Part shown: positions 1 through 37,136 of the stretch, piece after piece
Position numbering within the stretch: the stretch's first letter is position 1
How the letters are laid out: each line of letters opens with the position of its first letter
NCBI GenBank assembly: GCA_034530875.2
Contig: JAVRCJ020000010.1
Location: forward strand, 179,505 to 243,504
Direction of reading: 5' to 3'
Length of the DNA: 64,000 nucleotides
Source of the DNA: Nostoc sp. DedSLP01
Lineage (GTDB): Bacteria; Cyanobacteriota; Cyanobacteriia; Cyanobacteriales; Nostocaceae
The notes under the pieces: model-generated
What the model was told of the DNA's origin: nothing
The model's input: the letters and a program-made list of their open reading frames with translations, nothing else
The model's database searches: none
Translations under genes and position numbers: made by a program

Positions 1-2839
1 CGCCAACTCCATACTCATCGATAAAAACTAACCAGCAGGTATTTTTTTCAATTGCTTGTAATAATTCAATTGGTGTAGATTGTTTCCAAATTGGGATATA
101 AAACCAATCGCTGATATTTGGGTTTTTACCTAATGATTTTGGCGGTATTGTTGATAACGCAGTATCAGAATTAGCCTCAATCCAATAACGTTGGCGCTCA
201 AAAGGATAAGTAGGCAAAGAAATATGTCTGCGTTGTTCGTGGGTATAAAAACCTGCCCAATTTATTGGCAATCCTGTTAACCAAAGCCGAGAGAGAGTAT
301 TCAGCAAAAATGCCACATCAGAAATTTGCTCTTGAGGATGCCGTAAAGAAGTTAGTACTAGATTTTGCGAACTTAACTGTCGTTTGGCTAGAGTAGTTAA
401 CGTGCGTCCCGGGCCAACTTCTAAAAATATTCGCTCTGGTTGTTGCAGTAGTTCGGCAACTCCCTCGCTAAATAATACCGATTGCCGTAAATGTTGAGCA
501 TAGTAGTTAGGGTCAGTTGCTTGCTCTGCTGTAATCCAAGTCCCTGTAACATTAGAAATAAAAGGAATTTGGGGTGGTTTCAAATTGGCTTCTCTAACGT
601 GTCGGACAAATGGTTCTAAAATCGGCTCCATCATTTGAGAATGGAAAGCATGAGATGTATGCAAGCGACGGCAATCTATACCTTTTTCAATCAAATAATT
701 TTGTAATGTTTCTATCGCTTCTGTAGCACCGGAAACCACACACAGAGACGGTGCATTACTCGCTGCTAAAGAAAGTTCTGAACCCAACATTGGCTGTATT
801 TCTCGAGCAGAAATCGAAACAGAAAGCATCGATCCAGATTCGAGTTTTTGCATTAATTGTCCGCGAATTGCGACTAAAGTTAGTGCTTCTTCTAAAGAAA
901 AAATACCCGAAATACAAGCCGCTACATACTCGCCGATACTGTGACCAATCATCGCTTGTGGATGCACGCCCCACGACATCCAAAGTTTAGCCAGAGCATA
1001 TTCAATTACAAATAATGCAGGTTGTGTTAAAGAAGTTTGTTGGAGCTTTTTGCCTGTAGTTTCTAATGTTGTAGTGTAAAGTATATCTCTAATATCTAAC
1101 TTTAAATGCGCTTTTAAAAATTCACAACAATCATCAACTTGTTGCCGAAAGATTGCTTCTGTTTCATATAATTCCCGTCCCATATTTACATACTGCGCTC
1201 CCTGTCCGGGAAACATAAATACAATTGGATGGTTACGGGTTTCTGAGCAACTGTTAAAAATGCCTTGTTTATCTGGTGCTGTTAGTATTTTTATAGCGTC
1301 TGAAATATCTTGGCACAACAACACTCGACGGTGATTAAAACTTTGGCGACCAACTTGCAAAGTATAAGCTACATCAGCAAGATTTAAATCTGGATGCTTT
1401 TGTAGATGATTAGCGAGGTTTTCTGTAGCAGTTTCTAGTGCTGTATTCGTCTTAGCTGAAAGTATCAATTGCTGATACTTTCTTCCCTGCTCCTGTGCTT
1501 TGCTACTCCCCTGCTGCGTTGGAGCTTCTTCTAATATTACATGGGCATTAGTACCGCCAATCCCAAAAGAGCTAACTCCTGCGCGTCTAGGATATTTATC
1601 TGCTTTCCATTCCGAAAGTTTATTGTTGATATAAAAAGGACTGTTGGCAAAATCAATTTGAGGATTTGGTTGCTCAAAATGCAAGCTGGGAGGAATTTGT
1701 TTGTGTTTCAGAGCTAAGACTGTTTTAATTAAACCTGCAACGCCAGCAGCAGCATCCAAGTGTCCGATATTTGTTTTTAAAGAACCAATCGCACAGAAAT
1801 TTTTCTTTTTTGTACTGCTTTGAAATGCTTGGGTTAGTGCAGCAACTTCAATCGGATCTCCTAAAGAAGTTCCTGTTCCGTGTGCTTCAATATAAGTTAT
1901 TGTTTCTGGTTCCACTTCTGCAACAATTTGAGCCGTTTTGATAACTTTAGCTTGACCTTCTATGCGGGGTGCTGTGTAGCTAACTTTGTTTGAACCGTCA
2001 TTATTGATAGCAGAACCTTTAATAACAGCATGAATAGAATCTCCGTCGTTTAGACTATCTTCTAATCTTTTCAAAACAACGATTCCTACACCTTCTCCAC
2101 TCACAGTTCCCCGTGCTTTAGCATCAAAGGCGCGGCAATGTCCGTCAGGAGAATTAATACCTCCTTCGTTATAAAGATAGCCAGTTTTTCTGAATGCACT
2201 GATGGAAATACCGCCAACCAAAGCCATATCGCATTCACCATTGAGCAAACTTTGGCAGGCTAAATGTACGGCTACTAATGAGGTCGAGCAAGCTGTTTGA
2301 ACTGTATAACTAGGCCCTGTTAAATTAAGTTTATAAGAAGTACGCGTAGCCAGGTAATCTTTATCACCTGCGATTACTATCTGACGTTCGTCTGTTGAAT
2401 TTCTAATATTTTGATTCAAATAAATGTTTAGTAAATAACCGCTTAAGTTTGCACCAGCAAAAACACCTATAGTACCATTGTATGTTTCGGAATTATACCC
2501 AGCTTTTTCTAATGCTTCCCAAGCACATTCTAAAAAAATTCTGTGTTGGGGATCGGTCATTTCTGCATCTCTAGGATTGAAACCAAAAAAGGCAGCATCA
2601 AAAAGCTCTACATCTTCTAAAACAGCATTGGCTTTGACATAATTGGGATTAGTAAGAAGCGCTGCATCTACTCCTGATGCCAATAATTCTTCGTCACTGA
2701 AAAAAGAAATTGATTCTACGCCATTTTGGAGATTATGCCAAAATTCATCAAGATTTTTTGCCCCAGGAAATCTTCCTGTTAATCCAATAATTGCGATTTC
2801 TGAACCGTTATGAGGATATGTTTCGGTTGGGATATTCAT
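1..2839 (-). CDS. Type I modular PKS (KS-AT, continuing into a probable KR region; truncated by the left window edge)
   Basis: Not in the ORF track because the stop lies outside the window. Manual translation from ATG 2839 gives MNIPTETYPHNGSEIAIIGLTGRFPGAK. KS motifs TACSTSL, HGTGT and KTNIGHLDAAAG are present, as are AT motifs GHSIGE and HAFHS (malonyl-type) and the post-AT LPTYPFERQRYW. The frame still reads at position 1 (TCWLVFIDEYGVG). Confidence 0.93.
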   Translation of the reverse strand, partial: MNIPTETYPHNGSEIAIIGLTGRFPGAKNLDEFWHNLQNGVESISFFSDEELLASGVDAALLTNPNYVKANAVLEDVELFDAAFFGFNPRDAEMTDPQHRIFLECAWEALEKAGYNSETYNGTIGVFAGANLSGYLLNIYLNQNIRNSTDERQIVIAGDKDYLATRTSYKLNLTGPSYTVQTACSTSLVAVHLACQSLLNGECDMALVGGISISAFRKTGYLYNEGGINSPDGHCRAFDAKARGTVSGEGVGIVVLKRLEDSLNDGDSIHAVIKGSAINNDGSNKVSYTAPRIEGQAKVIKTAQIVAEVEPETITYIEAHGTGTSLGDPIEVAALTQAFQSSTKKKNFCAIGSLKTNIGHLDAAAGVAGLIKTVLALKHKQIPPSLHFEQPNPQIDFANSPFYINNKLSEWKADKYPRRAGVSSFGIGGTNAHVILEEAPTQQGSSKAQEQGRKYQQLILSAKTNTALETATENLANHLQKHPDLNLADVAYTLQVGRQSFNHRRVLLCQDISDAIKILTAPDKQGIFNSCSETRNHPIVFMFPGQGAQYVNMGRELYETEAIFRQQVDDCCEFLKAHLKLDIRDILYTTTLETTGKKLQQTSLTQPALFVIEYALAKLWMSWGVHPQAMIGHSIGEYVAACISGIFSLEEALTLVAIRGQLMQKLESGSMLSVSISAREIQPMLGSELSLAASNAPSLCVVSGATEAIETLQNYLIEKGIDCRRLHTSHAFHSQMMEPILEPFVRHVREANLKPPQIPFISNVTGTWITAEQATDPNYYAQHLRQSVLFSEGVAELLQQPERIFLEVGPGRTLTTLAKRQLSSQNLVLTSLRHPQEQISDVAFLLNTLSRLWLTGLPINWAGFYTHEQRRHISLPTYPFERQRYWIEANSDTALSTIPPKSLGKNPNISDWFYIPIWKQSTPIELLQAIEKNTCWLVFIDEYGVG

Positions 2840-2853
2840 GACTTATTAATTCT

Positions 2854-5800
2854 TTAATTATTTTCAAATAATTTTATTTTTTGCAAACGTTTTCTCTGTT
2901 GCGCTTTCCCAGATAAAATTTTCTCTGTTTCGATATCACTGTCTTGTAAAGGTACGGTTTTATTTGCAGATGAACTTAAATATTCTGCTAAAGAATTGAT
3001 GGTGGGATATCTAAACAAATCAAGAGTTGATAGTTCTGCCTTTAATATTTCCTGTAACTGGCTGTGAACTGTAACTAAAAGTAATGAATGACCGCCAATT
3101 TCAAAGAAATTATCATGAATGCCTATCTTTTCAAGATTCAAAGCTTGCTGCCAAACAGAGGCTATTGTTTTTTCAATCTCAGTTTGTGGAACCGCATAAG
3201 CAACTTCTAATTCTGGGCGTAGACCATTCGGAATTGGCAATGCTCGACGATCTACTTTGCCATTGGATGTGAGTGGAAACGCTTCTAATATCATAAATGC
3301 TGTTGGCATCATGTGGTCAAGCAATTTATTTTGTAAGAAGCGTCGCAATTCAGAAATTGTTAGTGTTTTGTCTGAATGAAGAGTTATATAAGCGATTAAA
3401 TTTTGATTTCCTGGCTTATCCTCCCGCACGATCGCCACACTTGCAGATACAGATGGATGCTGATTGATAACTCCTTCAATTTCTCCTAATTCAACACGGA
3501 AACCTCGGATTTTTATTTGGTTGTCAATTCTCCCGATATATTCAATATCTCCACTTGCTAGAAAGCGAACTAAATCGCCTGTTTTGTAAAGGCGATCGCC
3601 TTCTTGTTTGCTAAATGGATTGGGAATAAATTTTAAAGCTGTTAATTCAGGTTGATTCAAATAACCCCTAGCTAATCCCAGTCCACCAATGTGCAATTCA
3701 CCTACTACACCTGTTGGTACTGGTTGTAAGTATTTGTCTAAAATGTACAACTGAGTATTAGCGATGGGTTTACCAATGGGTATGGAACCTAAAGTATATT
3801 TCCCGACTGGAACTTCATAAATACAGCAGCCTACCACCGTTTCTGTAGGGCCGTATTCGTTGATTAACATCGTATCTGGGGCTACATCTTGCCAGAAAGT
3901 TATACTTTCAGCTAATAAGTTTTCTCCACCAATAATAAAAGCTCTAGTTTTATTTGCTATCTCTTCTTGAGATAACTGTTGTTTCAACAAATCTAAGTGC
4001 GCGGGCGTGATTTTCACCAAGCTTAAATTCGAGCTTTTCTTTAAAGCTTGAGAAAGTGTTTCAATTCCTTGTTCTTCTGGTAATAATTCTGCTGTGCGGC
4101 CAACTAATAAAGGCGATAACAAACTGGTAATTGTTAAGTCAAAACCCAGAGGTGAATGAACTACAGTTCCTACTCCTTGTTCTACTGCATATCTTTGGGT
4201 AGCCCAAGTGAGGTAATTAACTAATCCTTGATGAGGAATCAGAGTTCCTTTCGGTTTGCCAGTAGAACCGGAAGTGTAAATAATATAAGCTAAATTTAAC
4301 TCGGTTGTTGTAGTAATTAAATTCTCAATTTTTTGTTGACTTATAGCTTGCCAATCGCTATCGATACAAATGGCTTTAATTTCATTTGTAGCGAAATCTG
4401 CCATTAAACGCTGTTGAGTCAGCAGGATTGGTATTTGAGAATCATTGATAATAAAAGCTTTTCTTTCTGAAGGATAGCTTGGGTCAATTGGTATGTATGC
4501 ACCGCCAGCTTTCAAGATGCCTAAAAGTGCAATTAACATTAAAGGCGATCGCTCTAGACAAATCCCCACCATAACATCTGGTTTTATGCCTAATTGCTGT
4601 AGGTAATGCGCTAGCTGGTTAGCACGAGTGTTTAATTCTTGGTAGGTTAGTTGCTGATTTTGATAAATAACAGCAATGTTATCTGAGGTGCGATCGCATT
4701 GAGCTTCAAACCAATGATGAATGCATTTATATTGTAGCTCTGATGTTTGAGTATTATTAAATGCAATTAACAGTTGTTCTCGCTCTTGTTCGCTGAGTAT
4801 ATCCAACCGCGAAATCTCTACAGAGGGATTGTCAATAACACTGAGTAACAAACTTTGCCACTGACTTGCTAAACGTTGAATATCTTCTTTATGGAAATGT
4901 TTGGCATCATAGTGAAATTCTACTTGAACTAAATCATTTTGTCTGCGAACACAAGAAAGCTTTAGTTTAAATCTGTCAAAGCAGACGTAAGATTGATAAA
5001 TTGAAAATGCTACTTGATGAGCAGAATAATTAGTAACTGTTTCCTCAAACTCATAACAAAATGGTAAAACTAGCTCTTCTATATTATCTTTAGCTGTTTT
5101 GGCAAATACGTTCCAACTAAAGCTATCTTGCCATTTCAGTGTTTCATCTGTTAACTCTTTAACCTGCACTAAGCGATCGCTAAATGTATAATTATCTTTC
5201 AGGTCAGAAACAAGCGGTAAATATTTGCTAAATAAACCTAGTGCTGTTTTTAATTCTTCATAGCTGCGACCATCACAGCCTACACCTATAATTAACTTTG
5301 ATTGACCAGTAAGACGCCAAAGTAAAATTTGCCAACAAGTAAGGAAAAAGATATCTATTGAGACTTGGGATTTTTGGATAATTTCTTCAATTTTAGTAAG
5401 TAAATTTTTGGGAATCGCTAAGCTAATAACTTGAGGTTCAAATTCTGATTCTTCAGAAAAGCAATTCTCAAAAGCAAGCTTTAAATTATCCAGAGTTGAA
5501 AAATCTACTTTCTGCCAGTATTTTGTTCTGGTTGTAGTTTCTTCTGCCTCCAGTAATTCATTTTGCCAGGTAGCAATATCAGCATATTGTAGTGGTTCTT
5601 CATCTATTTCTATTTCTATATTTTGTAAGCAGGCAGTATAATATTGGCTAATTTCAGTAACTATATTTTTGAATGTTTTAAAATCCGTACACAGAGATGG
5701 CAAATTTATAAATAAAATATACTTATTTGCTGAAAAATTTACTAAAACTATCTTTAATAAGTGATTTTCGCCTAATTTAGATGACTCTTGCCTGATTTTA

Positions 5801-6108
5801 TCGAAAAGGGTTTCTATCTCTATATTGTGAGGAGATTGACTTTCTAAATCATACTCATTTAAAAAAACATTAGTATGATTATTTATTACCTGAATAGGGA
5901 TTTTTAACCCAGGTTGGCGATAAAAACTTGTGCGAAGAACTTCGTTCCTAGCAATAATTTTATCTAACGCTTGTTTCAATATATCTACTTGTAAATTTCC
6001 CTCAATGAGAATACCACATTGATTTCGATAGAAATTACCACCTTGCTGTACTAACCAAAGGCGCTTTTGTTGAGGAGATAGTGGGAAACCCTGAATTTTT
6101 TCTTGCAT
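2854..6108 (-). CDS. NRPS: degenerate C ('interface') domain - A (Asn-type code) - PCP
   Basis: The C-like domain has NLPSLCTDF in place of HHxxxDG. A-domain cores YTSGSTGKPKG, YGPTE and YKTGD are present; the hand-read code DLTKIGEVGK is Asn-like. PCP motif is GGHSL. Confidence 0.92.
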   Translation of the reverse strand: MQEKIQGFPLSPQQKRLWLVQQGGNFYRNQCGILIEGNLQVDILKQALDKIIARNEVLRTSFYRQPGLKIPIQVINNHTNVFLNEYDLESQSPHNIEIETLFDKIRQESSKLGENHLLKIVLVNFSANKYILFINLPSLCTDFKTFKNIVTEISQYYTACLQNIEIEIDEEPLQYADIATWQNELLEAEETTTRTKYWQKVDFSTLDNLKLAFENCFSEESEFEPQVISLAIPKNLLTKIEEIIQKSQVSIDIFFLTCWQILLWRLTGQSKLIIGVGCDGRSYEELKTALGLFSKYLPLVSDLKDNYTFSDRLVQVKELTDETLKWQDSFSWNVFAKTAKDNIEELVLPFCYEFEETVTNYSAHQVAFSIYQSYVCFDRFKLKLSCVRRQNDLVQVEFHYDAKHFHKEDIQRLASQWQSLLLSVIDNPSVEISRLDILSEQEREQLLIAFNNTQTSELQYKCIHHWFEAQCDRTSDNIAVIYQNQQLTYQELNTRANQLAHYLQQLGIKPDVMVGICLERSPLMLIALLGILKAGGAYIPIDPSYPSERKAFIINDSQIPILLTQQRLMADFATNEIKAICIDSDWQAISQQKIENLITTTTELNLAYIIYTSGSTGKPKGTLIPHQGLVNYLTWATQRYAVEQGVGTVVHSPLGFDLTITSLLSPLLVGRTAELLPEEQGIETLSQALKKSSNLSLVKITPAHLDLLKQQLSQEEIANKTRAFIIGGENLLAESITFWQDVAPDTMLINEYGPTETVVGCCIYEVPVGKYTLGSIPIGKPIANTQLYILDKYLQPVPTGVVGELHIGGLGLARGYLNQPELTALKFIPNPFSKQEGDRLYKTGDLVRFLASGDIEYIGRIDNQIKIRGFRVELGEIEGVINQHPSVSASVAIVREDKPGNQNLIAYITLHSDKTLTISELRRFLQNKLLDHMMPTAFMILEAFPLTSNGKVDRRALPIPNGLRPELEVAYAVPQTEIEKTIASVWQQALNLEKIGIHDNFFEIGGHSLLLVTVHSQLQEILKAELSTLDLFRYPTINSLAEYLSSSANKTVPLQDSDIETEKILSGKAQQRKRLQKIKLFENN

Positions 6109-6135: not shown

Positions 6136-7194
6136 TTAATTTTTACTAAAACTTTTCAGTTCGCCCATCGCAACAAAAAGCTTACGTTCTCCCACATAAG
6201 GATTGCGGGCATGAGCAGTTAATACGTTATCTAGTAATAATATGTCTCCTTGTTTCCAAGGAAAACATACTTCTAATTTCTGATATACTTCACAAATTTC
6301 TTGCATTGTAGAGTCTGAAATTATAGTACCATCACCGTAATAACAATTGCGTGGTAAATCTTCTTCTTTAAAAGTTGACACTAGCGATTCGCGGATTTGT
6401 GTTTCTAAACAAGCTAAATGCCAATGTTGGGCTTGATTAAACCAAGAAAGTTCGCCTGTTTGAGGATGTTTAACTACAGCTGGGCGAATAGAAATAGTTC
6501 TTAAGCCACCATCTTTTCTCCATTCAAAATCTATGAAATTATTTCGACAAATATTTTCTACCTGTGCTTTGCTTTGAGTTTGAAAAACTGTTTGCCAGTC
6601 AAGCCCTAACCCATTTCTATAATTACGGACATACATAACTTGTTTTTCAACAAATTGTTCCCTAATTTTGGGTTTTATCAGTTGAAATACTTTACGACTA
6701 TCAACTATTGGAGTTTCTCCTCCTTGCTGTGCGGGTTGACAACAGCCGAACAAAATTTTTGCAGGCCATCGATGGTTAAAAGAATTTTCGTTGTGCCACA
6801 ACAACTTCTTATCAGCAGGATAAAAAACAGGAGTATAAACTTGACCGCTGAGAGTTTCGCGGGGATGTTCGCCATTTTCTTTAAATAATTCCGAGCAAAC
6901 GGCTAAAGAAAATCTTTCAAATGCAGCTGCTGTAGTAATATTAAATCCTTTAAAAAGGATAGCACCATATTTAATTAAATTTGTATCTATAAATTCTCGA
7001 TTTGCTTGCGCCCAATCTGCAATATCAACATCTGATACAGATGGTTTGATAACCAACGGTAGGGTTTGCTCGTCTCCAAATTTATCTATTTTGATTAATT
7101 CAGATTCTAAATTAATAGATTTTCTACTAATTTTATGGAATTTTTCCTTGAAATTAGAATTGTTGATTTTTATTTCTTTCATTTTATTATTCAA
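6136..7194 (-). CDS. TauD/SyrP-family Fe(II)/2OG dioxygenase, probable PCP-bound Asx beta-hydroxylase
   Basis: H-x-E motif (LWHNENS) and distal His (LTAHARNPY), with GGETP and WFNQAQHWH motifs. It lies between an NRPS ending in a C domain and an NRPS starting with an interface domain. Confidence 0.88.
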   Translation of the reverse strand: MNNKMKEIKINNSNFKEKFHKISRKSINLESELIKIDKFGDEQTLPLVIKPSVSDVDIADWAQANREFIDTNLIKYGAILFKGFNITTAAAFERFSLAVCSELFKENGEHPRETLSGQVYTPVFYPADKKLLWHNENSFNHRWPAKILFGCCQPAQQGGETPIVDSRKVFQLIKPKIREQFVEKQVMYVRNYRNGLGLDWQTVFQTQSKAQVENICRNNFIDFEWRKDGGLRTISIRPAVVKHPQTGELSWFNQAQHWHLACLETQIRESLVSTFKEEDLPRNCYYGDGTIISDSTMQEICEVYQKLEVCFPWKQGDILLLDNVLTAHARNPYVGERKLFVAMGELKSFSKN

Positions 7195-10100
7195 CTTCAG
7201 TTACTATCTCAATTACTTTTCGCTTAACTCTACTTAATTTTTGTTGATGTTTCTCTTTTCGCTTTTCTTCTTGATTCAACTGATATTCTTTATCTGCTTT
7301 GATAATAATTTTTTCTAGTTCGTTTAAATTTATATGAGGATTAGCAACAATTTGAGACAAGATTAGCTCAAAATTATTTACTAATCGGCTTGTGCTACTA
7401 GCATCAAATAAATCTTTGTTATATTTCAATAACCCAACTATTCCTTGCTCTGTATCGTTTAATTCTAGAAGTAGATCGAATCTTGTTACCGTATTTTCTA
7501 AAACATCCAAACTAGTCAAAGTCAAATCTGAAAGTACCAAAGGATGTGTAGGAGTATTTTGGAGGATAAATTTAACCTGAAATAAAGGAGTTTGGCTGAA
7601 GTCTCTTTTAGGATTAAGAGCAGTAACTAGTTGTTCAAATGGTAAATCTTGGTGAGTATATGCTTCTAGGCAAACTTTACGTATGTGTTGCAAAAAATCG
7701 GTAAAATTAGGGTTGCCGTATAAGCTACTACGTAACACTAATTGATTAACAAAAAAACCAATTAAACTCTCTATTTCTATTTGATTTCGGTTAGCTATAT
7801 CAGTACCAACAACAATATCTTTATCACCTGTATACCAAGATAATAAAACTTTAAACGTTCCAAGTAACGTCATAAATAACGTCGTACCTAGACTGTTACT
7901 TAGCTTTTTAATTTCTTGGGATAATGTGTGAGACAGTATTAAAGTTTGTCTCCCTTCCAGAAATGTTTTCGCTTCGCCAACTTGAGGAATTGTAGGTAAT
8001 TGTAAAACTGGTAAATTCTCTCCTAATTGTTTTTTCCAATATGTAACTAAGGTATCCAATAACTCACCCTGTAAGTACTTTCTTTGCCAAGCGGCAAAGT
8101 CTGCATACTGGATATTTATCTCTGGAAGCGGTGAAGGCAGATCGTGAGAAAAAGCTTCATAAAGTGCTGACAGTTCTCGAATAAGTACTCCTTCTGACCA
8201 GCCATCAAAGATAATATGATGCATAGTCACTAATAAAATATGTTTCCTAGCTTCCAAGCGTAAAAGAGTTAGCCTTAACAATGGAGCTTGTGTTAAATCA
8301 AACGGTTGTTGGTAATTTGCTAGTCTTATAGCTTGTATTTGTGTTTCATGCTCGCTGTCAGGTAAATGTCCTAAATCTACTATTGTTAGGGGTATCTTTA
8401 AAGCAGAAGCAATGATTTGGGCCGGTTGACCATTTACAATCTGTAAGGATGTTCGTAAAATTTCATGTCTGCGTACTATTTCATTAATACTTTTCTCTAA
8501 AGCTTTGACATTGAGTAAGCCTTCTAACAGCACTGCACTAGAACCATTGTAAATATATGATTTTGGATCTAGTTGATGTAAAAACCACAATCTCTGCTGT
8601 GCAAAAGATAGCGGTAATTCTATCTCTCGGGAAACTCGTTCAATTGGTGGCAGTGAATTAAATATTAACTGTTTATCTTCGATATTTTTGGATAATTTTG
8701 CTATTGTCGGCGATTCAAAAATTCGGCGCAACGGTAACTCGATATCAAAATTTTTATTAATCCGAGATATAACTTGGGTTGCTAAGAGTGAGTGTCCGCC
8801 CAATTCAAAAAAGTTGTCGTTGATTCCTAACTTTTCTAAGTCAAGTACTTGCATCCAAATCATCGCCAGTTGTTTTTCGATGGCGGTTTGAGGTGCAACA
8901 AAGTTGTCTGCAAATTCTGAAAGTATTGTATCAAGCGCAGGTAGGGCTTTTCGGTCTACTTTACCATTTGGTGTAAGTGGAAGTGTTTCTAAGATGACAA
9001 AATTTGTTGGCATCATGTAGCTTGGCAACTTTGACTCCAAAAAGCTACGGACTTGTGAAATTATTAATTTTTGTTCGTTTTCAGCAACTAAATAAGCGAC
9101 TATTCTTTGAGAATCTACTGCATCTTTGCGTACTATAACTACAGCTTGTTGAACTCCAGAGTGTTGGTTGAGGAGTGCTTCAATTTCTTGTAATTCAATA
9201 CGAAAACCACGAACTTTGACTTGATTATCAATACGACCGATATATTCGATTTCTCCATTTGGTAAATAGCGGGCTAAATCTCCTGTTTTATACAAACGCC
9301 CAGGTTTTTGACTAAATGGATTTGGTATAAAATTCTGTGCCGTCAACTGTGGACGGTTAAAATAACCTCGTGCAAGTCCATCCCCACCAATATGCAATTG
9401 ACCTGGTACACCCACAGGAACCAACCGATCGTATTCGTCTAAAATGTAAAATTGCGTATTAGCGATCGCACCACTAATCGATATAGTCCTATTGTCAGTT
9501 TCTACCTGAGATGCTGCCGACCAAATAGTAGTTTCTGTGGGGCCGTACATATTCCACAAAGACCCACACCGATGCAATAATTGATTGGCTAACTGTTCAG
9601 GTAAAGCTTCTCCACCACAAAGAATTTTTAATTCCTCGTTACCACTCCAGCCTGCTGTTAAAAGTAGTTGCCAAGTCGCCGGTGTTGCTTGCATAACTGT
9701 CGCTTTGGAATCAGTTATTTTTGCAGACAATTCAATTCCATCAGCAGCTACTTCGCGGCTCACAATTACCACACGACCACCAACTATGATTGGTAGAAAA
9801 AGTTCTAACGCTGCAATATCAAAGGAATATGTTGTAACTGCAACTAATGTATCTTCCTGAGTTAAACCTGGCGTTTCTTTCATGGAGTACAAAAAGTTGC
9901 TTAAAGCACTGTGAGGAATTTGTACGCCTTTTGGTTTGCCTGTTGAACCAGAGGTATAGATGACATAAGCTAGGTTGTCAAGAGAAAGTTTGGATAATAA
10001 ATTCTCTTGATTTTCTTGGGCAATGTTGTGCCAATCTGCATCTAAACAAATGATTTTAGCTTCATTGTGTGGTATTGCTCCTAAAAGTGATGTTTGAGTT

Positions 10101-11911: not shown

Positions 11912-11926
11912 ATTTTAACCTCACTT

Positions 11927-26731: not shown

Positions 26732-26743
26732 TAATTGAGAACA

Positions 26744-27859: not shown

Positions 27860-29653
27860 TTATTTCATACCCGATTGTACGTTCCATAAACTGGCATAAA
27901 TTCCATTCTTTTCTAACAATTGCTCGTGAGTTCCCGATTCTACTAGCTCACCATATTCCATAACGTAGATGCGATCGGCATTGCGGATAGTGGAAAGACG
28001 ATGAGCGATCGCAATTGTAGTTCGATTAACGGTAATCCTTTCTAAAGAACGCTGAATTGCAGCTTCAGTTTCATTATCTACTGCTGATGTAGCTTCATCT
28101 AAAATCAAAATTGGTGGATTCTTTAAAACAGCTCTGGCGATCGCAATTCTTTGGCGTTGTCCGCCAGATAATTTTTGTCCTCGTTCGCCAACTATTGTTT
28201 CATAACCTTGGGGTAGCGCCATAATAAAATCATGGGCTTCGGCAATTTTACTAGCTTTAATTATTTCTTCATCCCTAGCATCAAAGGTACCATAAGCGAT
28301 ATTTTCAGCAACGGTGCCATGAAATAAGAAGACATCTTGACTTACCAAGCCAATACTGCGACGTAAATCGTCTAATTTCAAGTCTTGGATATCAATACCA
28401 TCAATAAGGATTCTTCCGGCAGAAATTTCATACAATCGCAGCAATAATTTTACTAAAGTACTTTTACCGGAACCTGTAGAACCGACAATGGCGATCGTTT
28501 TACCTGCGGGTATATGTAAAGATAAGTTTTTAATTACTGGCTTTCGATTTGCATAAGCAAAAGTGACTTCTTTAAAATCAATTTCACCGCGTACTTTTTC
28601 AATAGGTAAAGCTTTATCTCCTGGAATAATATTAATGGGAGTATCTAATAAATTCATAATTCGATTGGTAGAAGCCATTGACATTTGATATTTGTCAAAC
28701 ATTTCTCCTAATGTTACTAATGGCCATAACAATCTCTGTACTAAAACTAGTAAAACACTGTAATTACCAATAGATATTTTCCCACTATATGTTGCCATCC
28801 CTCCCCCAAATAATAAGGCTGTGAAGCCAGCTAAAATTAACATTCTGATTAAAGGAGTAAATGCAGCAGAAAGTTTAATTGCTTTAGTGTTACTTTTTTT
28901 ATATGCTTCACTTTCTCCAGCAAATCTAGCGCTTTCATAAGCTTCAGCAGTAAAACTTTTAATTGTAGTAATTCCACTCAGATTATTTGCCAATCTCGAG
29001 TTGAGAAAACCTACTCTTTCTCGCACTTCGGCGTAACGCTCTTCTAGCCGCTTTTGATAACTAAAGGAACCCCAAAGAATAAATGGCATAGGCAACAATG
29101 TTGCCAAGGTAATCGAGGGAGGCAAAATCCAGAAAGCACCACAGGTTAAAATAAAAACTGAAGTGGCAACTTGGATAATTTCACTTGCTACAAAATTTAG
29201 AAAATCTTCCAATTTGTTGATATCATCATTCAAAATTGACATCAAACCGCCAGTACTGCTTTCCTCAAAGTAAGCTGAATCTAATTCTTGTACGCGATTG
29301 TAAGTATCTAAACGTAAATCATGCTGAATATCTTGGGCTAAATTACGCCATAGTCTAGTGTATGCGTACTCAGAAGCTGATTCTAATATCCAAATAATAA
29401 TGGTGGCAACTGAAAGTAGGAAAAATTGCCAAATTACATCTTTGACACCTAATTTGGCAATGAATGAATTTTGCTGTTCTACGAGAATATCTACAGCAAC
29501 GCCAATTAACCACGGTGGTGCTAAATCGAAAATCGTATTAGCGATAGTAAAGAATGTTGCTTGCCAAATTTGTAGGCGGTATTGGATAGCATAATTGAGC
29601 AAGCGTTTTAGAGGAGAATTTAAATTTTTAGGTTTAGGAGATACTCTTTTCAC
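27860..29653 (-). CDS. ABCB-type fused permease/ATPase (possible siderophore exporter)
   Basis: N-terminal multi-TM domain, Walker A GSTGSGKST, signature LSGGQ and Walker B ILILDEATS. Confidence 0.88.
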   Translation of the reverse strand: MKRVSPKPKNLNSPLKRLLNYAIQYRLQIWQATFFTIANTIFDLAPPWLIGVAVDILVEQQNSFIAKLGVKDVIWQFFLLSVATIIIWILESASEYAYTRLWRNLAQDIQHDLRLDTYNRVQELDSAYFEESSTGGLMSILNDDINKLEDFLNFVASEIIQVATSVFILTCGAFWILPPSITLATLLPMPFILWGSFSYQKRLEERYAEVRERVGFLNSRLANNLSGITTIKSFTAEAYESARFAGESEAYKKSNTKAIKLSAAFTPLIRMLILAGFTALLFGGGMATYSGKISIGNYSVLLVLVQRLLWPLVTLGEMFDKYQMSMASTNRIMNLLDTPINIIPGDKALPIEKVRGEIDFKEVTFAYANRKPVIKNLSLHIPAGKTIAIVGSTGSGKSTLVKLLLRLYEISAGRILIDGIDIQDLKLDDLRRSIGLVSQDVFLFHGTVAENIAYGTFDARDEEIIKASKIAEAHDFIMALPQGYETIVGERGQKLSGGQRQRIAIARAVLKNPPILILDEATSAVDNETEAAIQRSLERITVNRTTIAIAHRLSTIRNADRIYVMEYGELVESGTHEQLLEKNGIYASLWNVQSGMK

Positions 29654-29710
29654 GACTCTTTATTTTTTGTAATTATATGATTTTAGTAGAGATAAAATTA
29701 AGAATTTAAC

Positions 29711-30520
29711 TCAATTTATTGCTGATTGATTTCTTTTTCTCTTGCGTCCTATTGGTACACACATAGGAGTATCCATAATAGGATCGAGAATAATAAGACA
29801 CTCTAATCCAAAAACCTCTTGAACCATTTCTTGAGTCATCACTAACTTTGGTTCGCCAGCTGCAAAAATTCGCCCTTCTTTAACAGCGACTAAATAATCA
29901 GCATATCGACACGCCTGATTTAAATCGTGTAGCACCATAACAATTGTTCGTCCTTGAGTTTGGTTCAGATCGTACAATAAATCTAAAATTTCTATTTGGT
30001 GTGCTAAATCTAAAAAAGTAGTCGGTTCATCTAAAAGCAAAATATCTGTATCTTGCGCTAAGGACATAGCAATCCAAGCTCTCTGTCTTTGTCCGCCAGA
30101 TAATGTATCTAAGGCTCTATCTGCTAAATTTAATAAATCTGTAATTTCTAGGGCTTGCTGTACGATTTTTTCGTCTTTTGCCGACCATTGTTGTAACCAA
30201 TTTTGATAAGGATAACGTCCTTGTGCAACTAAATCTTTTACTGTTAATCCTTCCGGCGCTACTGGCCCTTGAGGCAAAATACCCAACTGCTGCGCTAGTT
30301 CTTTGGGAGAAAGATTGAAAATAGAATTTCCATCAAGATATACTATACCGCTACACGGTTTGAGCAATCTTGCTAGACCTCTTAACAAAGTTGATTTACC
30401 ACAACCATTAGCACCAACTAAAGCAGTAATTTGTCCGCAAGGAATTGCCAAATTCAAGTCACGAATAATCGTAGCACCATCGTAAGCTAAAGATAGATTT
30501 TTGGCTGACAATCCTTTCAT
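29711..30520 (-). CDS. fecE: Fe-siderophore ABC transporter ATPase (FecE/FhuC-like)
   Basis: Motifs [22 protein letters not shown] and [11 protein letters not shown]. Confidence 0.9.
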
Positions 30521-30619
30521 AATGAATTTTAGATTTAAGATTTTGGATTTATAAAAACCTGATTTGTTAGTCGCTCAAATATGCTTTTCGCTAGTCACCA
30601 GTCACGAGTCCCCAATCTC

Positions 30620-31660
30620 TCATTTCTTCCGATTGCGAATTAATAAATACAAAAAATAAGGAGCGCCAATGGCAGCAGTTACCACTCCACAAGGAAGTTC
30701 AATAGGTGCAAAGGCTGTTCTTCCTAAAAAGTCTGCCATGACAACAATTACTCCTCCTAGCAGTGCAGAAGTAGGAATCAAGCTTTCATGGGTTGTACCT
30801 ACTAACTGTCGTCCTAAATGGGGTGCAATTAAACCCACAAAACCAATGTTACCGGCGGTGGCGACTGCTGCACCTGCTAAGGCTACCCCCACGAACATCA
30901 ATAAACCACGCTGCCATTCCACCAAACTGCCTAGACTTTTAGCAACATCATCTCCTAAACTGAGAGCGTTTAAATGTCTTGTCAATATCAATGCCATCGG
31001 GATAAAAACAACTAACCAAGGTAATAGAGAAAATACTTGTTGTGAAGTACGTCCGTAGACACTTCCAGCTAACCAAACCAAAGCATTGCTAACATTATTA
31101 ATTTCCCCAAAGGTAATCGTTAAGCTAGTTATGGCAGTGGCGATCGCAGATAAACCCACACCAATCAAAATTAATAGAATTGGGGAACTGCCATGATTCC
31201 AAGCCAGCGAGTAAATTAAAATTGCCATCACCCAAGCACCAGCAAAAGCCGATATCGGCAAAATGTATATTGGTGCTGAAGGAAATAAGACAATGACACT
31301 AACTGCTGCTAGAGTCGCCCCAGCATTAATGCCAATAATACCGGGATCGGCCAATGGATTGCGTGTCAGTCCTTGAAAGATAGTCCCAGAAATTCCTAGC
31401 GCCATGCCCACCATCAAAGCTACAAGGGTGCGTGGTAAACGCAGGCTATAAATCACAAATGTATGGTCTGGGTTTCCCGTATCTAGGCCGAATAAAGTTT
31501 TCACAATATCCCAAGGCGAAATTGGATATTCACCCCGCCCCAAATTCATTACCATTGCCACTACAATCGCTAGTGTCAAACATAGCACCACCACTGGTAA
31601 GCGTCGGTCTATACGAAAAGATATCGCCGGGGAGCGAATGACTAGCCAATCAACTTTCAT
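30620..31660 (-). CDS. fecD: Fe-siderophore ABC permease (FecD-like)
   Basis: Motifs LRLPR, RNPLADPGIIG, LGDDVAKSLG and IGFVGLIAPH. Confidence 0.9.
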   Translation of the reverse strand: MKVDWLVIRSPAISFRIDRRLPVVVLCLTLAIVVAMVMNLGRGEYPISPWDIVKTLFGLDTGNPDHTFVIYSLRLPRTLVALMVGMALGISGTIFQGLTRNPLADPGIIGINAGATLAAVSVIVLFPSAPIYILPISAFAGAWVMAILIYSLAWNHGSSPILLILIGVGLSAIATAITSLTITFGEINNVSNALVWLAGSVYGRTSQQVFSLLPWLVVFIPMALILTRHLNALSLGDDVAKSLGSLVEWQRGLLMFVGVALAGAAVATAGNIGFVGLIAPHLGRQLVGTTHESLIPTSALLGGVIVVMADFLGRTAFAPIELPCGVVTAAIGAPYFLYLLIRNRKK

Positions 31661-32688
31661 TTTTTTACCTTTGACTTAGCCAGGTAGACAAAAAAGGGCG
31701 CACCAATCAGTGCTGTCATCACACCTACAGGTAATTCCTGTGGTTTAAGCAACACACGAGCGACGATATCTGCAACCAAGAGTAAAATAGCTCCCAAAAC
31801 TGCACAATAAGGTAATATCCAACGGTAATCGGCTTTAATATAAAATCTCACAATATGGGGAACGACTAAACCAATAAAGCCGATTGGCCCTGCCAAAGCG
31901 ACGGAACTTCCAGCCAGTAAAATTACGCTCATAGCAGTCGCAACTTTGACCCAGGCTGTTTGTTGACCCAAGCCTTTAGCTACGTCTTCACCCAAACTCA
32001 TGGTAGTGATTTGTCTGCCAAGGGCAAAAGCTACAACTAATCCCATGAAGACGAAAGGTAATGCCTGAAAAAACATATTCATATCGCGGCCAGCTAGCGA
32101 ACCAGCTAACCAAAATCTAATTTCTTGTAGGGTGCGTTGGCTAACAATCAGAACCGCGGTGGTAATAGAAGAGATGAGAGCAGTTAAAGCCGCGCCTGCT
32201 ACAGTCAAATTTAATGGGGTGGCTCCTCCCCGTCCCAAAGAACCAAGGAAGTAAACTAATATTGCCGTGGTTCCTGCCCCTAGAAATGCCACAATTGTGT
32301 AAACATCTTGGGATACGCTACCAAATACAAAAGCGGCTAGAACTACTGCTACTGCTGCACCGGACTCAATACCCAAAATCCCTGGATCTGCTAAAGGATT
32401 GCGTGTTAAACCTTGCATTAATGCTCCGGCAACTGCTAAAGCCGATCCTACAAGAATAGCAACGAGCGATCGCGGTAATCTCACAGTCTGAATCACTAAG
32501 CGATCGTATGAACCATCAAAGACTATAAATGATGTCAAAACTCGCTCTAGAGGTATTTCTGCTGCACCCAGCATTACACTGCACACCAAACAAATTAGCA
32601 GTATACACAGCCCCAAAACCAGACCAAATAAGCCCGACATTTGTCGCTTTTTCAATCCTTTCGGTGGTGCTATGGTCGCTTTTATCAT
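31657..32688 (-). CDS. fecC: Fe-siderophore ABC permease (FecC-like)
   Basis: Motifs VRLPR, RNPLADPGILG, LGEDVAKGLG and IGFIGLVVPH; 4-bp overlap with the next permease gene. Confidence 0.9.
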   Translation of the reverse strand: MIKATIAPPKGLKKRQMSGLFGLVLGLCILLICLVCSVMLGAAEIPLERVLTSFIVFDGSYDRLVIQTVRLPRSLVAILVGSALAVAGALMQGLTRNPLADPGILGIESGAAVAVVLAAFVFGSVSQDVYTIVAFLGAGTTAILVYFLGSLGRGGATPLNLTVAGAALTALISSITTAVLIVSQRTLQEIRFWLAGSLAGRDMNMFFQALPFVFMGLVVAFALGRQITTMSLGEDVAKGLGQQTAWVKVATAMSVILLAGSSVALAGPIGFIGLVVPHIVRFYIKADYRWILPYCAVLGAILLLVADIVARVLLKPQELPVGVMTALIGAPFFVYLAKSKVKK

Positions 32689-32972: not shown

Positions 32973-33065
32973 CACAGCTAGCTGTGCGCCCCTACAGAGG
33001 ATTGCCTTAGATGATAAAGTCTGTAAATTCATACTTTCAATATTTAGCAGCTTTTTAGTCATTAA

Positions 33066-33171: not shown

Positions 33172-33288
33172 CAAACTGGTATTGTCTTAGATGAACGTGA
33201 ATCTCAGTTGAAAAAGGGAGTAGGGAAACAAGGGGGAGAATAACCGATGCCCAATGCCCCATACCCAATGACCAATGGCTAATGACCA

Positions 33289-35379
33289 ATGACTAAAGCT
33301 TATAGAAGAAAATCAATACGGATTTTACCCTTAATACTCAGTTTTATAGTGGTTTTGTTTATCGGCAGTCAGACGATCGCTGTACCAACAAAATCCACAG
33401 AGATATTATGGGATACATTCGGTATACCGCACATCTACGGTAAAAATGACCAAAGTGCATTTTATGCCTTTGGTTGGGCACAAATGCAAAGTCATGGAGA
33501 TTTACTTTTGCGTCTCTATGGTCAAGCACGAGGACGCGCGGCCGAATACTGGGGTGAAGAATATCTAGAGTCGGATCGTTGGGTACTGAGTATGGGAGTG
33601 CCGGAACGCGCTCAAAGTTGGTACAAAGCACAAAATCCAACTTTTCGCAAGTATCTAGATGCTTTTGCTGCTGGGATCAATGCTTATGCTTCGCAAAATC
33701 CGAAATCGATCGACGATCGCGTTGAGGCAGTGCTACCAGTCAAGGGTGAAGATGCGATCGCTCATTTACATCGGGTACTCAATTTCAACTTTGTGGTCGA
33801 TCCGGGGTCGGTATTGGAGTTGGGCAAACAAAAATTGCCAGCAGGTTCTAATGGTTGGGCGATCGCACCTTCTCATTCTGCAAGTGGCAAGGCTATGTTA
33901 CTAGCCAATCCCCATCTACCTTGGTCGGATTTATTTTTGTGGTACGAAGCTCAAATTACTACGCCGGGAATTGATGCTTATGGAGCGACGCTTGTAGGTG
34001 TTCCTGTATTGGCGATCGCTTTTAACAATAAATTGGGTTGGACTCACACCGTTAACACCTACGATGGTTGGGATTTGTACGAACTCGCACTGGCAGATAA
34101 TGGCTACCGCTTTGATGGTAAAGTTCGTCAATTCGTTTCTAAAACCCTGTCTTTGAAGGTGAAGCAGAAAGATGGCTCTTTACAAGAACAACCATTAGTA
34201 GTTAAAAGTTCCATCCACGGGCCTGTGGTAGTTGAGAAAGATGGTAAAGCCCTCGCATTAAGAGTTGCCGGTCTTGACAGACCAGGCGTACTCCAACAGT
34301 GGTGGGATATGGCACGAGCAAAAAACCTCAACCAATTTGAAACTGCCCTCAAACGCTTGCAACTATCGATGTTCACGGTGATATATGCCGATAGAGAAGG
34401 GCATATTATGCACCTATTTAACGGTCAAGTTCCGGTACGTCAACAAGGAGATTTTGCATATTGGCGAGGTGTCATTCCTGGCGATACATCTAAAACTCTA
34501 TGGACAAAAATCCATCCATACCAAGAGTTACCACGGGTAGTCGATCCTAAAAGTGGTTGGTTGCAAAATACAAACGACCCACCTTGGACAACTACTTTCC
34601 CAGCCGCCATTAAAGCAGATGATTACCCATCTTATATTGCACCTCGTTTCATGGATTTTCGCTCGCAACGTTCTGTGAGAATGTTGGCTGAAGATGACAA
34701 AATCTCTTTTGATGAGATGATTGCATACAAGCATTCGACCCGTATGGAAATGGCCGATCGCCTTTTGGACGATTTAATTCCTGCCGCCCGCAAGTACGGT
34801 AAAGAATTGGGACAAAAAGCAGCCAATGTTTTGGAAACCTGGGATCGGCAAGCCAATGCAGATAGTCGAGGGGCAGTACTATTTACCTTTTGGGTTCAAC
34901 AGTTGGACTTAGATAAAACATTTAGTAAACCTTGGAATGAAAATTCTCCACGCACCACACCCGATGGTTTAGCCGATCCCCAAAATGCAGTTGCAACCCT
35001 CGAAGCAGTGGCAGCAGAAATAGAAAAAACATATAGAACAATAGATGTGGCATGGGGAGATGTTGTTCGACTGCGTTATGGCAATGTAGATTTACCTGCC
35101 AATGGTGGTGCAGATCCTCTTGGGATCTTCCGCAGTATCTATCCATCACCGCAGCCTGATGGAAAATTCAAATCCGAGGGTGGCGATTCCTATGTTGCAG
35201 CAATTGAATTTTCTAACCCTGTACGAGCAATGGCACTCACCAGCTACGGCAATGCAACTCAACCAGGGTCGCCCCATGTTGGCGATCAGTTAAAGCTGTT
35301 TGCCAAAAAACAATTGCGTCCTGTGTGGCGCGATCGCTCCGATATTCTCGCCCATCTAGAAGCACGAAAAGTATTCTAA
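33289..35379 (+). CDS. Secreted penicillin-acylase-family Ntn hydrolase (PvdQ / glutaryl-7-ACA-acylase-like)
   Basis: Signal peptide, WDTFGIPHI, autoprocessing site GSNGWA (Ser nucleophile) and LLANPHLPW. Confidence 0.9.
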
Positions 35380-35457
35380 AACATAGGGCATGGCGCATGG
35401 GGCATTGGGCATGGGAGGTGTGGGAGGATGGGGAAGAAATCTTTCTCCCCACACTCC

Positions 35458-35592
35458 GAATACGGTTCGGTTAACGTGTTTATTCCTCGAAGATCCCCTC
35501 AACCCCCCTTGGAAAGGGGGGCTTACAACCCTCTTTTACCCCCTTAAAAAGGGGGTCGCCGTAGGCGGGGGGATCTTAACCGAACCGTATTG
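35458..35592. mobile_element. 135-bp MITE with 16-bp TIRs and 10-bp target-site duplication
   Basis: AATACGGTTCGGTTAA (35459-35474) and TTAACCGAACCGTATT (35576-35591), flanked by CCCACACTCC at 35448-35457 and 35593-35602. Confidence 0.85.
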
Positions 35593-35658
35593 CCCACACT
35601 CCCCCATTTCCCCACTCCCTACTCCCCACCTCCCCATTTTCAAAGGATGAAAGATTGA

Positions 35659-36315
35659 GTGACTAAAAACCCTATTCTTTCGGTACAAGATTTAGGTCGA
35701 ATAGTTGACCAACGCTGGATTTGGAGCCACCTCAGTTTTCAATTATTTCCAGGGGAGCGAGTAGCGGTAATAGGCGCTTCTGGCTCTGGTAAAAGTTTGC
35801 TGCTGCGAGCATTAGCTGGTCTCGACGCCGTACAAGCAGGACAAATTATTTTTCAGGAACAGTCGATAAATTCTTACTTTATGCCGGCGTATCGTTCCCA
35901 AATTATTTATCTGCAACAACGACCAGCCCTTTGGGAAGGAACTGTGGAAGAAAATCTTCAGCAAGTTTATCGATTAGCTGTTCATCGGCATCTAATTTAC
36001 AACCGCAAGTTGATTTTAGATTATCTGCATCTTTTGCATAAAACGCCAGACTTTTTGCAGCGTCCGGTTAGCGCCCTTTCCGGTGGAGAAGCGCAGATAG
36101 TTGCTTTTCTGAGAGCTTTGCAACTTTCACCTGCGATACTGCTACTAGATGAACCTACTGCTTCACTAGATGCTGGAACTGCCCACAGTTTAGAGGCTTT
36201 AGTTACAGCTTGGCAAGACGAACGTCCCCAACGCGCATATCTCTGGACAAGTCACGACCCCAACCAATTGGAAAGGATTACTAATCGTCAAATTACTTTG
36301 AAGGGGAAAGATTGA
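35659..36315 (+). CDS. ABC ATPase, FetA/YbbL-like
   Basis: Motifs GASGSGKS, LSGGE and LLLDEPT; translationally coupled to a FetB-like permease. Confidence 0.8.
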   Translation: MTKNPILSVQDLGRIVDQRWIWSHLSFQLFPGERVAVIGASGSGKSLLLRALAGLDAVQAGQIIFQEQSINSYFMPAYRSQIIYLQQRPALWEGTVEENLQQVYRLAVHRHLIYNRKLILDYLHLLHKTPDFLQRPVSALSGGEAQIVAFLRALQLSPAILLLDEPTASLDAGTAHSLEALVTAWQDERPQRAYLWTSHDPNQLERITNRQITLKGKD

Positions 36316-37136
36316 TGGAAACGAACTATATCCAGATTAGTTACGGACAATTGGCTTTGGCGACTTTGTTTATTTTGATTAATGTGGGGCTTTCTTTTGG
36401 TTTGCGGTTGGGGCTGGAACAAAGTTTAGGGATGGCTTCCCTACGTATGGTAGTGCAGTTATTGATGGTGGGATACATATTACAGTGGGTATTTACTCTC
36501 AGCAACCCTGTCTTAATCGTACTTTTGGCTTTAGGGATGACTGTTGTAGCTGGTATATCTAGCGTTAACCGTACACGTAGACGATTTACTAGTATTTATT
36601 GGAATAATTTTATTTCGCTTTTGAGTGGTTCGTTTTTAGTTACCGGGATAGTAGTTAGCGGCATTTTGCGCGTACAACCTTGGTACGAGCCTCAGTATCT
36701 CATTCCTTTTTTGGGTATGGTTTTGGGTAATGCACTCACGGGTACATCTTTGAGTTTAGATCGGTTTATGGAAGACTTGACCAATCGTCGAGGAGAAATA
36801 GAGGCGCTACTGACTTTAGGCGCAACCCGTTGGGAAGCTGCACATCAAACTATTAAAGAAGCCTCCAGAACAGGAATGATTCCTACTATTAATTCAATGA
36901 TGGTGATGGGATTAGTTAGCTTACCGGGAATGATGACTGGTCAAATTCTCGCCGGGGCAAATCCTACTGATGCCATACGCTACCAAATTGTAATTATTTT
37001 TGCACAGGCATCAGGAACAGCGATCGCCATTATCGGCGTAATTATCCTAGCTTTCCTTGCCCTGTTTAATCCTAATCATCAGTTGACAGATTCCTTAATT
37101 AAAAAATCACAAGCCAAGAAGCCCAAACAAACCTGA
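36312..37136 (+). CDS. fetB: FetB/YbbM-like (UPF0014) permease
   Basis: Motifs RMVVQL, IPFLGMVLGN, GLVSLPGMMTGQILAG and AIRYQI. Confidence 0.85.
   Translation: MMETNYIQISYGQLALATLFILINVGLSFGLRLGLEQSLGMASLRMVVQLLMVGYILQWVFTLSNPVLIVLLALGMTVVAGISSVNRTRRRFTSIYWNNFISLLSGSFLVTGIVVSGILRVQPWYEPQYLIPFLGMVLGNALTGTSLSLDRFMEDLTNRRGEIEALLTLGATRWEAAHQTIKEASRTGMIPTINSMMVMGLVSLPGMMTGQILAGANPTDAIRYQIVIIFAQASGTAIAIIGVIILAFLALFNPNHQLTDSLIKKSQAKKPKQT

Follow-up and report, generated by a model that had tools for sequence, protein, structure and literature searches.

A hybrid NRPS/PKS cluster of Nostoc sp. DedSLP01 with iron-uptake genes and a conserved distal end that may form a pyridone

We examined a window of 64,000 nucleotides from Nostoc sp. 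DedSLP01 (G000:C10:179505-243504, where G000 is the source genome and C10 its contig JAVRCJ020000010.1) that carries part of a gene cluster in which nonribosomal peptide synthetase (NRPS) and polyketide synthase (PKS) genes lie beside genes for iron uptake. Positions without a prefix are those of the window; among our internal labels, G, L and P numbers denote sampled genomes, loci and proteins, respectively. An earlier note on this DNA had described a synthetase line starting with a fatty acyl-AMP ligase (FAAL) and had placed its distal modules and release domain outside the window. A domain search of the window recovered every gene and domain that it had named, in the same places and order and on the same strands. 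Its distal modules and its release domain follow further along this contig, at C10:144.4-182.3 kb. The complete locus spans about 72 kb (~C10:144.4-216.6 kb) of one contig with an N count of zero. The cluster is complete and intact, and its sole broken domain is the acyltransferase (AT) of the third PKS.

In order of transcription, the front of the cluster encodes FAAL-ACP-C-A-PCP-E, C-A-PCP, a PhyH protein, C-A-PCP-C, a TauD protein, C*-A-PCP and KS-AT-KR-ACP (ACP and PCP, acyl and peptidyl carrier proteins; C, A and E, condensation, adenylation and epimerization domains; KS and KR, ketosynthase and ketoreductase; C*, an atypical C domain). The middle consists of a stand-alone C, JmjC, EctB, half-C-A-PCP and KS-AT-KR-ACP. 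The end runs through PanP, KS-AT(dead)-KR-ACP, KS-AT-ACP, a methyltransferase, C-A-PCP-TE (TE, thioesterase), two cytochromes P450, a short-chain dehydrogenase/reductase (SDR), a Suc_Fer-like protein, a MATE protein and another SDR. It is this distal end, beyond the earlier note's window, that is the distinctive part of the cluster.

The distal end and its conservation

All genes of the distal end lie on the minus strand, to the left of the window. PanP, an aspartate decarboxylase by its match to TIGR03799 (C10:164806-166461; score 606.2, cut-off 606.1), is followed by PKS 3 (KS-AT-KR-ACP, C10:160317-164738). The AT of PKS 3 lacks its serine and some 90 residues, as it does in close relatives, so the module would need loading in trans or skipping. 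PKS 4 (KS-AT-ACP, C10:157056-160283) has no KR. After a SAM-dependent methyltransferase gene (C10:156221-156994) comes the terminal C-A-PCP-TE (C10:152011-156120), with the A code VDWIISLANK, which we take to specify beta-alanine, and a TE with the motif GHCYGG and a Cys-Asp-His triad. Here and below, the code labels Ala, Pro variant, Gly, Asn, diaminobutyrate (Dab) and beta-Ala are predictions from reference codes. Two P450s with an atypical I-helix follow (C10:149062-152014), and the tail holds an SDR (C10:148114-149001), a Suc_Fer-like ferredoxin of the CctD type (C10:147058-148074), a MATE exporter (C10:145662-147032) and the last SDR (C10:144381-145265).

For comparison we used 34 relative regions of 12-100 kb each, chosen by their JmjC orthologue from 49 loci and a draw of relatives; gene counts in them refer to the stretches compared. 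Across 35 regions, incomplete ones included, 33 module orders occur, that is, the front half is shuffled, and the distal end is fixed in 31/31 clusters in which it is in view. In these 31 clusters the last KR is either deleted (8) or has a degenerate or broken NADPH loop (23), whereas internal KRs are canonical in 98 of 112. The TE motif GHCYGG stands after a beta-Ala module in all 31, and a P450 comes directly after the TE module in 30/30 relatives. The core of the family is its distal end and not the N-terminal residues.

To escape selection by JmjC, we also chose genomes by the TE, in two draws that both count G000. In the order draw, where up to 8 candidates were scored for each genome, the TE is present in 9 of 301 genomes; in the family draw it is present in 57 of 201 (~28%), spread over 24 of 67 genera. 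The flanks of the eight other TE-selected genomes of the order draw were read as gene positions, not as KR state or A codes, and a second TE match in G039 was left out. PanP is present in 8/8, lying on the same contig 7-14 kb upstream in seven, and a P450 orthologue (55-77%) occurs in 8/8, at most 5 kb away in five. JmjC was rejected as the family core, its orthologue being found in 0/8 of these genomes and absent in L283. Among 26 orthologous metagenome loci, the TE has its Cys in 26/26 and the P450 is next in 25/26; the last PKS lacks a KR or carries a degenerate one in 18 of the 21 in view, with three unreadable and none canonical.

Of 176 proteins of the TE clade, 175 combine a Cys-Asp-His triad and a beta-Ala-type code, the lone exception being Ala-coded with a Ser. 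The named clade members are all from cyanobacteria, and none bears a product name. N-methyltransferases sit inside the beta-Ala modules of P0244, P0249 and P0257, and in P0289 PanP is fused into the NRPS; this fusion, and a PanP score just above the cut-off, support the beta-Ala reading independently. Similar fusions occur in L039 and L212. On a plasmid of Chroococcidiopsis sp. CCNUC1, a beta-Ala/Cys-TE module, P450s, PanP and a KR-degenerate last PKS are found with a salicylate synthase, heterocyclization (Cy)-type modules, a halogenase and a receptor, suggesting that the distal end is portable between metallophore lines. The plasmid cluster is likely to make an undescribed dual-ligand metallophore. 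It comprises L282, L284 and L285 (NZ_CP097482.1 63.6-127 kb) and also has hydroxymalonyl-type ACP genes and four PKS.

Iron-uptake genes and the role of the product

Beside the front of the synthetase line, two plus-strand genes (23882..27697) encode an AMIN-domain TonB-dependent siderophore receptor (23882-26731; above the cut-off of TIGR01783) and a periplasmic binding protein (26735-27697). Domain matches identify an ABCB-type exporter, FecE, FecD and FecC on the minus strand (27860..32688). On the plus strand follow an Ntn-hydrolase acylase resembling PvdQ and CcsQ, with a GSNGWA motif and an N-terminal signal-like stretch (33289..35379), and homologues of FetA and FetB (35659..37136), both below the NCBIfam cut-off. 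The genome has two PF00593 genes, and the second is not in a siderophore context; the cluster receptor is thus the only siderophore-type receptor of the genome, and for this reason we regard a metallophore role of the cluster product as highly probable.

With the queries used, no other complete siderophore route was found in the genome. Its IucA/IucC gene is single and its matches to Lys/Orn N-monooxygenases (PF13434) are weak and partial, none of them full-length; neither such a monooxygenase nor an operon for NRPS-independent siderophore (NIS) synthesis, as expected for a hydroxamate or schizokinen-type route, was found. Schizokinen is disfavoured as the ligand of the receptor, given the lone IucA/IucC and the weak monooxygenase matches; the receptor scores with FhuA-type models. 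The IucA/IucC siderophore-synthetase gene (G000:C16:145598-147505) stands without its usual partners beside an RND-type gene. For comparison with anachelin, the cluster's open reading frames of at least 150 aa contain neither a salicylate synthase nor an aromatic-residue code, no search aimed directly at FbnL/FbnM having been made.

The link to iron uptake extends to the relatives. Of the 34 JmjC-selected regions, 28 have the receptor in view, 21 the acylase and 20 the ferredoxin; a CctD-type Suc_Fer-like gene has been noted in cyanobacterial siderophore cassettes, in the accessible part of that literature. In 6/8 of the TE-selected genomes the receptor is linked to the TE, PanP or P450 gene, and in G049 and G039 it lies between the TE gene and the P450. 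These placements bear on the idea that the product is mainly an aminopolyol or pyridone antibiotic, or a ligand of another metal, made as an acyl-prodrug, with uptake genes that serve foreign siderophores. Its predicted dihydroxy-diamino ketide arm resembles aminopolyol antibiotics, the hydroxylated residue is Asn-coded rather than Asp-coded, and G246 has no linked receptor. We consider such a role improbable, because receptor genes lie within the cassette in G049, G039 and CCNUC1, the CctD-type ferredoxin is in view in 20/34 relative regions, and the layout matches that of the cyanochelin C locus in the available part of its description.

Regulation is less informative. Scanning for the Fur-box consensus yielded 9-13 of 14 matches and, for want of a background, was uninformative; de novo motif search gave a conserved palindrome scoring 19.1 against 9.2-9.7 for shuffled sequences, the sequences being kin. 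Relatives conserve the palindrome ~104-110 nt ahead of the receptor gene's ATG; the degenerate copy here (23771..23789, plus strand) scores 10.5, below at least 58 other sites of the genome, a rank that does not establish iron regulation.

The TauD/interface module for an Asx residue is Asn-coded in 22 of the 34 regions, Asp-coded (DLTKIGHVGK) in five and not seen in seven, two of which are short contigs. Since it is not seen in those seven, beta-hydroxy-Asx was rejected as the constant ligand. The usual list of peptide-metallophore chelators, in the part of the source available, contains no pyridone (PMC12971057) and leaves the cluster short of a strong ligand, which turns attention to the distal end as a ligand source.

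Predicted ring closure and its alternatives

We propose that the chain is released by Dieckmann condensation as a 3-acyl-4-hydroxy-2-pyridone, or its dihydro form, whose tricarbonyl oxygens would be the constant iron ligand; we put the probability of this at about 0.5. A FAAL-primed fatty-acyl peptide-polyketide chain would be extended with malonyl units (an HAFH motif presumably marking malonyl-type ATs), with PKS 3 loaded in trans or skipped, and would end as 3-oxoacyl-beta-alanine. The Cys thioesterase would close the 3-oxoacyl-beta-alanyl thioester, and a P450 would desaturate the ring to the 3-acyl-4-hydroxy-2-pyridone. The acylase would remove the acyl tail, and the product would be exported via ABCB/MATE and taken up again via the receptor and FecBCDE. 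The O,O pair of the pyridone would serve as the constant ligand, with the shuffled polyol/amino-alcohol arm contributing weaker ligands as well as specificity for the receptor.

Ring closure is favoured by a last KR that is lost or degenerate in 31/31 clusters, by the Cys-Asp-His triad with its beta-Ala code in 175/176 proteins, by the adjacent P450 and by the linkage of PanP. Kirromycin uses a 3-oxoacyl-beta-alanyl thioester, a Cys-Asp-His release enzyme and a P450, from which we infer that the same closure may occur here. As far as the available portions of the sources go, the kirromycin sequence comprises an Asp decarboxylase, a beta-Ala module, a Dieckmann cyclase of the Cys-Asp-His family and a P450 desaturase (PMC5818483, PMC4979870), and the pyridone ends of kirromycin, aurodox and factumycin combine an aspartate decarboxylase and a terminal beta-Ala module after a beta-ketoacyl unit with a Cys-Asp-His release enzyme, a P450 and an optional methyltransferase (PMC5818483, PMC4979870, PMC9361827). 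The Nostoc cluster has an aspartate decarboxylase (PanP, at the cut-off), a terminal beta-Ala module after a non-reducing PKS and the triad. According to the same portions, however, the kirromycin type are antibiotics of actinomycetes that are made without a TE, by a Dieckmann cyclase that stands alone, whereas here an in-line TE is combined with a PLP-type PanP and different P450s in the context of iron uptake.

Several observations speak against a pyridone siderophore. The cluster has a TE and no stand-alone cyclase of the KirHI/TrdC family; the TE is an in-line type I enzyme (PF00975) whose PDB matches are thioesterases, the closest solved being AB3403 (4zxh). Its predicted structure, with a mean pLDDT of 55, was too poor for a structure search and was left unused. 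A Cys nucleophile also occurs in 18 of 53 distant TEs (29-38% identical) that follow ordinary modules, and is not diagnostic alone. The P450s have no close solved relative (best match 2e-33). The clusters compared are kin with common ancestry, so that their counts are not independent, and several metagenome loci repeat genomes already counted. G246 carries the distal cassette with no receptor on that contig (G289 is too fragmented), a beta-hydroxy residue of the Asn-coded kind makes a poor ligand for iron, and 7/34 regions have no TauD/interface module in view. The proposal draws on gene order, domains, motifs, conservation and the linkage with iron-uptake genes.

The same TE could instead hydrolyse the chain to a linear acid. 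A P450 would then hydroxylate either the beta-alanine, giving the alpha-hydroxycarboxylate isoserine, or the beta-keto amide carbon, and the ligands would be hydroxy-carboxylate and beta-keto-amide oxygens. A linear acid would supply a standard ligand type, Cys TEs elsewhere follow ordinary modules, the P450 is as constant as the TE, and the N-methyltransferases embedded in three beta-Ala modules (P0244, P0249 and P0257) are compatible with it. Taken alone, though, it leaves the dead or absent last KR in 31/31 clusters unaccounted for, as well as the Ser in the sole non-beta-Ala member of the clade (n=1), and we hold it rather unlikely. The three N-methyltransferase modules also make a universal N-hydroxy-pyridone disfavoured.

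The Cys-TE might also join the chain end to an internal amine or hydroxyl, such as the Dab side chain, forming a macrolactam or macrolactone and hence a cyclic siderophore. The chain bears free amines and hydroxyls, and JmjC-selected clusters have a Dab-coded module. The JmjC orthologue is nevertheless found in 0/8 TE-selected genomes (in which Dab modules are unread), and the chains differ greatly in length and in module order (33 orders in 35 regions), yet the TE is ~50-94% conserved. Such a product, which would have the same mass as the Dieckmann product and be indistinguishable from it in MS1 spectra, seems very improbable.

Returning to the pyridone, we suggest tentatively that PanP, a KR-dead PKS, the beta-Ala module, Cys-TE and P450 form a portable cassette that would give a 4-hydroxy-2-pyridone head to a large undescribed siderophore family with many different peptide-polyketide arms, among them a salicylate-thiazoline one. 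We read the cluster as a variant of the cyanobacterial FAAL-NRPS/PKS siderophore systems, and there is a good chance that it brings a new chelator class; should the ring prediction fail, the product of the family is probably still undescribed. About two dozen cyanobacterial siderophore structures have been described. If the proposal is true, it would provide a chelator class outside the rules of metallophore mining, an in-line Cys TE that works as a Dieckmann cyclase, and, for beta-hydroxy-diaminobutyrate, a JmjC/half-C cassette. Iron acquisition by nitrogen-fixing Nostoc-type cyanobacteria, in which this cluster family is common, is poorly covered, and cultured strains carrying the same distal line exist, such as Nostoc linckia NIES-25 and z4 and Nostoc sp. 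ATCC 43529 (L058, L017 and L060).

Variable modules and comparison with known systems

The middle part of the cluster lies on the minus strand, left of the window (L001-L003). It consists of the stand-alone C (C10:176189-177592), a predicted JmjC/Cupin_8 hydroxylase (C10:175296-176174), EctB diaminobutyrate transaminase (C10:174000-175256; above the TIGR02407 cut-off), half-C-A-PCP (C10:171186-173951), whose half-C is the C-terminal lobe of a C domain, and PKS 2 (KS-AT-KR-ACP, C10:166497-171164). The A code DIWEMVADDK is Dab-like, a reading supported independently by the adjoining gene above the EctB cut-off. The C / JmjC / EctB / half-C-A(Dab) cassette is optional in the family, and its layout mirrors that of C / TauD / interface; the JmjC/half-C cassette would make beta-hydroxy-Dab. 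In the accessible part of work on laxaphycin, cupin-8 proteins are proposed beta-hydroxylases of residues including Asn, and JmjC/cupin-8 genes likewise sit in a cyanobacterial lipopeptide NRPS/PKS cluster (laxaphycin/scytocyclamide; PMC7524897). Laxaphycins are, by contrast, membrane-active cyclic lipopeptides, and here JmjC goes with EctB and a half-C Dab module near iron-uptake genes.

The front half occupies the minus strand of the window. NRPS 1 (FAAL-ACP-C-A-PCP-E, 16189..22857) has the A code DLFNNALTYK (Ala), NRPS 2 (C-A-PCP, 12870..16187, true ATG at 16187) has DAHITTHVVK, a Pro-family code with an altered pocket, NRPS 3 (C-A-PCP-C, 7187..11911) has DILQLGMIWK (Gly) and NRPS 4 (C*-A-PCP, 2854..6108) has DLTKIGEVGK (Asn). 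Compared with reference codes, these motif-read codes agree with the earlier note's first four residue calls. Between the synthetases are genes for a PhyH/EctD-like Fe/2OG hydroxylase, predicted from domain and structure-database matches to act on a free amino acid (11927..12769), and, by domain match, a predicted TauD-family beta-hydroxylase (6136..7182). The C domain of NRPS 4, which had been called inactive, indeed has PSLCTD in place of HHxxxDG; it is best read as an interface domain that would recruit TauD. The KS-AT of PKS 1 lies within the window (1..2839); the whole gene (G000:C10:177592-182343) continues into KR-ACP and retains only the tail of an E domain that has otherwise been lost. 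PKS modules with an epimerase at their end (KS-AT-KR-T-E) are common in relative regions, e.g. G061, G063 and G065.

The NRPS 2 A domain nests among DVQFIAHVVK domains, the nearest non-identical codes being Pro-type DVQFIAHVVK (66-67%), and its code recurs in 5 of 120 matches, itself included. This nesting and recurrence, and a PhyH paralogue beside a similar code on contig C1, support the Pro-family reading independently. On C1 (G000:C1:245270-255795), a two-module NRPS with codes DAHVTTHVVK and DILQFGVIWK and extra inserted domains adjoins a 62% paralogue of the window's PhyH, and by its codes is a second small pathway with the same odd Pro-like pocket. The window's PhyH is about equally close to 7e01, which we take to be a proline hydroxylase and whose entry lists merely a phytanoyl-CoA dioxygenase, and to the leucine hydroxylase 5nch, so that the hydroxyproline, (OH)Pro, that had been called here is plausible rather than firm; proline is the likely substrate, and leucine is the alternative. 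This PhyH and module-2 code occur in 0/34 relative regions.

Together, the modules predict acyl-D-Ala-(OH)Pro-Gly-(bOH)Asn-ketide-(bOH)Dab-ketide x3-beta-Ala. A lipopeptide, as first proposed, is probably not the mature product, given an amide-linked acyl group and a PvdQ-like acylase, as for cyanochelin C in the part of that source available.

The earlier description of the system as cyanochelin-type holds for the transport/acylase cassette and not for the chemistry. The cluster has a FAAL-primed PKS/NRPS line with receptor, binding protein, ABC permeases and CctD ferredoxin adjacent. The available text on cyanochelin C (Myxacorys; bioRxiv 10.64898/2026.07.24.740629) describes, as here, a FAAL fused to the NRPS, an amide-linked acyl, a PvdQ-like acylase, a receptor/ABC cassette, FetAB, TauD plus a C domain, and a beta-Ala module, which is internal there and terminal here. 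Cyanochelin C differs in its lack of PKS, its methyloxazoline, two beta-OH-Asp-derived ligands and a reduced C-terminus, against four PKS modules, an Asn-coded module, terminal beta-Ala and a Cys-TE here; the terms P450, decarboxylase and diaminobutyric were not found in that text. Cyanochelins A and B, in the portions available (PMC12628792; preprint 2026.07.30.741596), share a hybrid PKS/NRPS, an AMIN-domain receptor, a CctD-type ferredoxin and dioxygenase beta-hydroxylation, but in them the PKS acts at the start, elongating the fatty acid, and an azole is present together with two ligands of the beta-OH-Asp type. Here the PKS are internal and terminal. The cluster contains no Cy domain and no Cys, Ser or Thr code, full C domains all having HHxxxDG save the interface-type one, and in place of two beta-OH-Asp-derived ligands there is one TauD/interface module, whose DLTKIGEVGK code we take to be Asn. 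Lacking a Cy domain and with its single beta-hydroxylase module Asn-coded, the cluster is not a cyanochelin by its predicted chemistry.

Leptochelin, lusichelin and fatuamide (PMC11240249, PMC12210259, PMC11877528) are likewise cyanobacterial hybrid PKS/NRPS metallophores and differ in their salicylate-azoline ligands; 'pyrid' and 'decarboxylase' were not found in the available parts of their main texts. Literature searches, and term searches of the accessible papers on leptochelin, lusichelin, fatuamide, cyanochelins and minutumamide, brought up neither a cyanobacterial siderophore with a pyridone nor a report on this cluster, in agreement with the earlier view of a FAAL-primed hybrid metallophore cluster whose product is undescribed; Galica 2021, MIBiG and the bioRxiv supplements (cyanochelin C Fig. 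S11 and tables) may list members as predicted 'cyanochelin-like' clusters.

A second PKS cluster at C10:100-124 kb was rejected as part of the locus, as gyrA and unrelated genes intervene. This separate cluster (C10:93.5-124 kb; L005/L006) holds a FAAL and three PKS, a UbiA prenyltransferase, HAD, SDR, a methyltransferase, a TubC_N-docking protein and a thioesterase, and is flanked by large repeat proteins. In the window, a gene for a DUF3865 protein, a heme-oxygenase-like iron enzyme, is paired with a Rieske ring-hydroxylating oxygenase gene (41186-43043), and adjoining AAA_35-WD40, TIR-AAA_35 and caspase-domain genes (43508-50197) are possibly a signalling or defence set.

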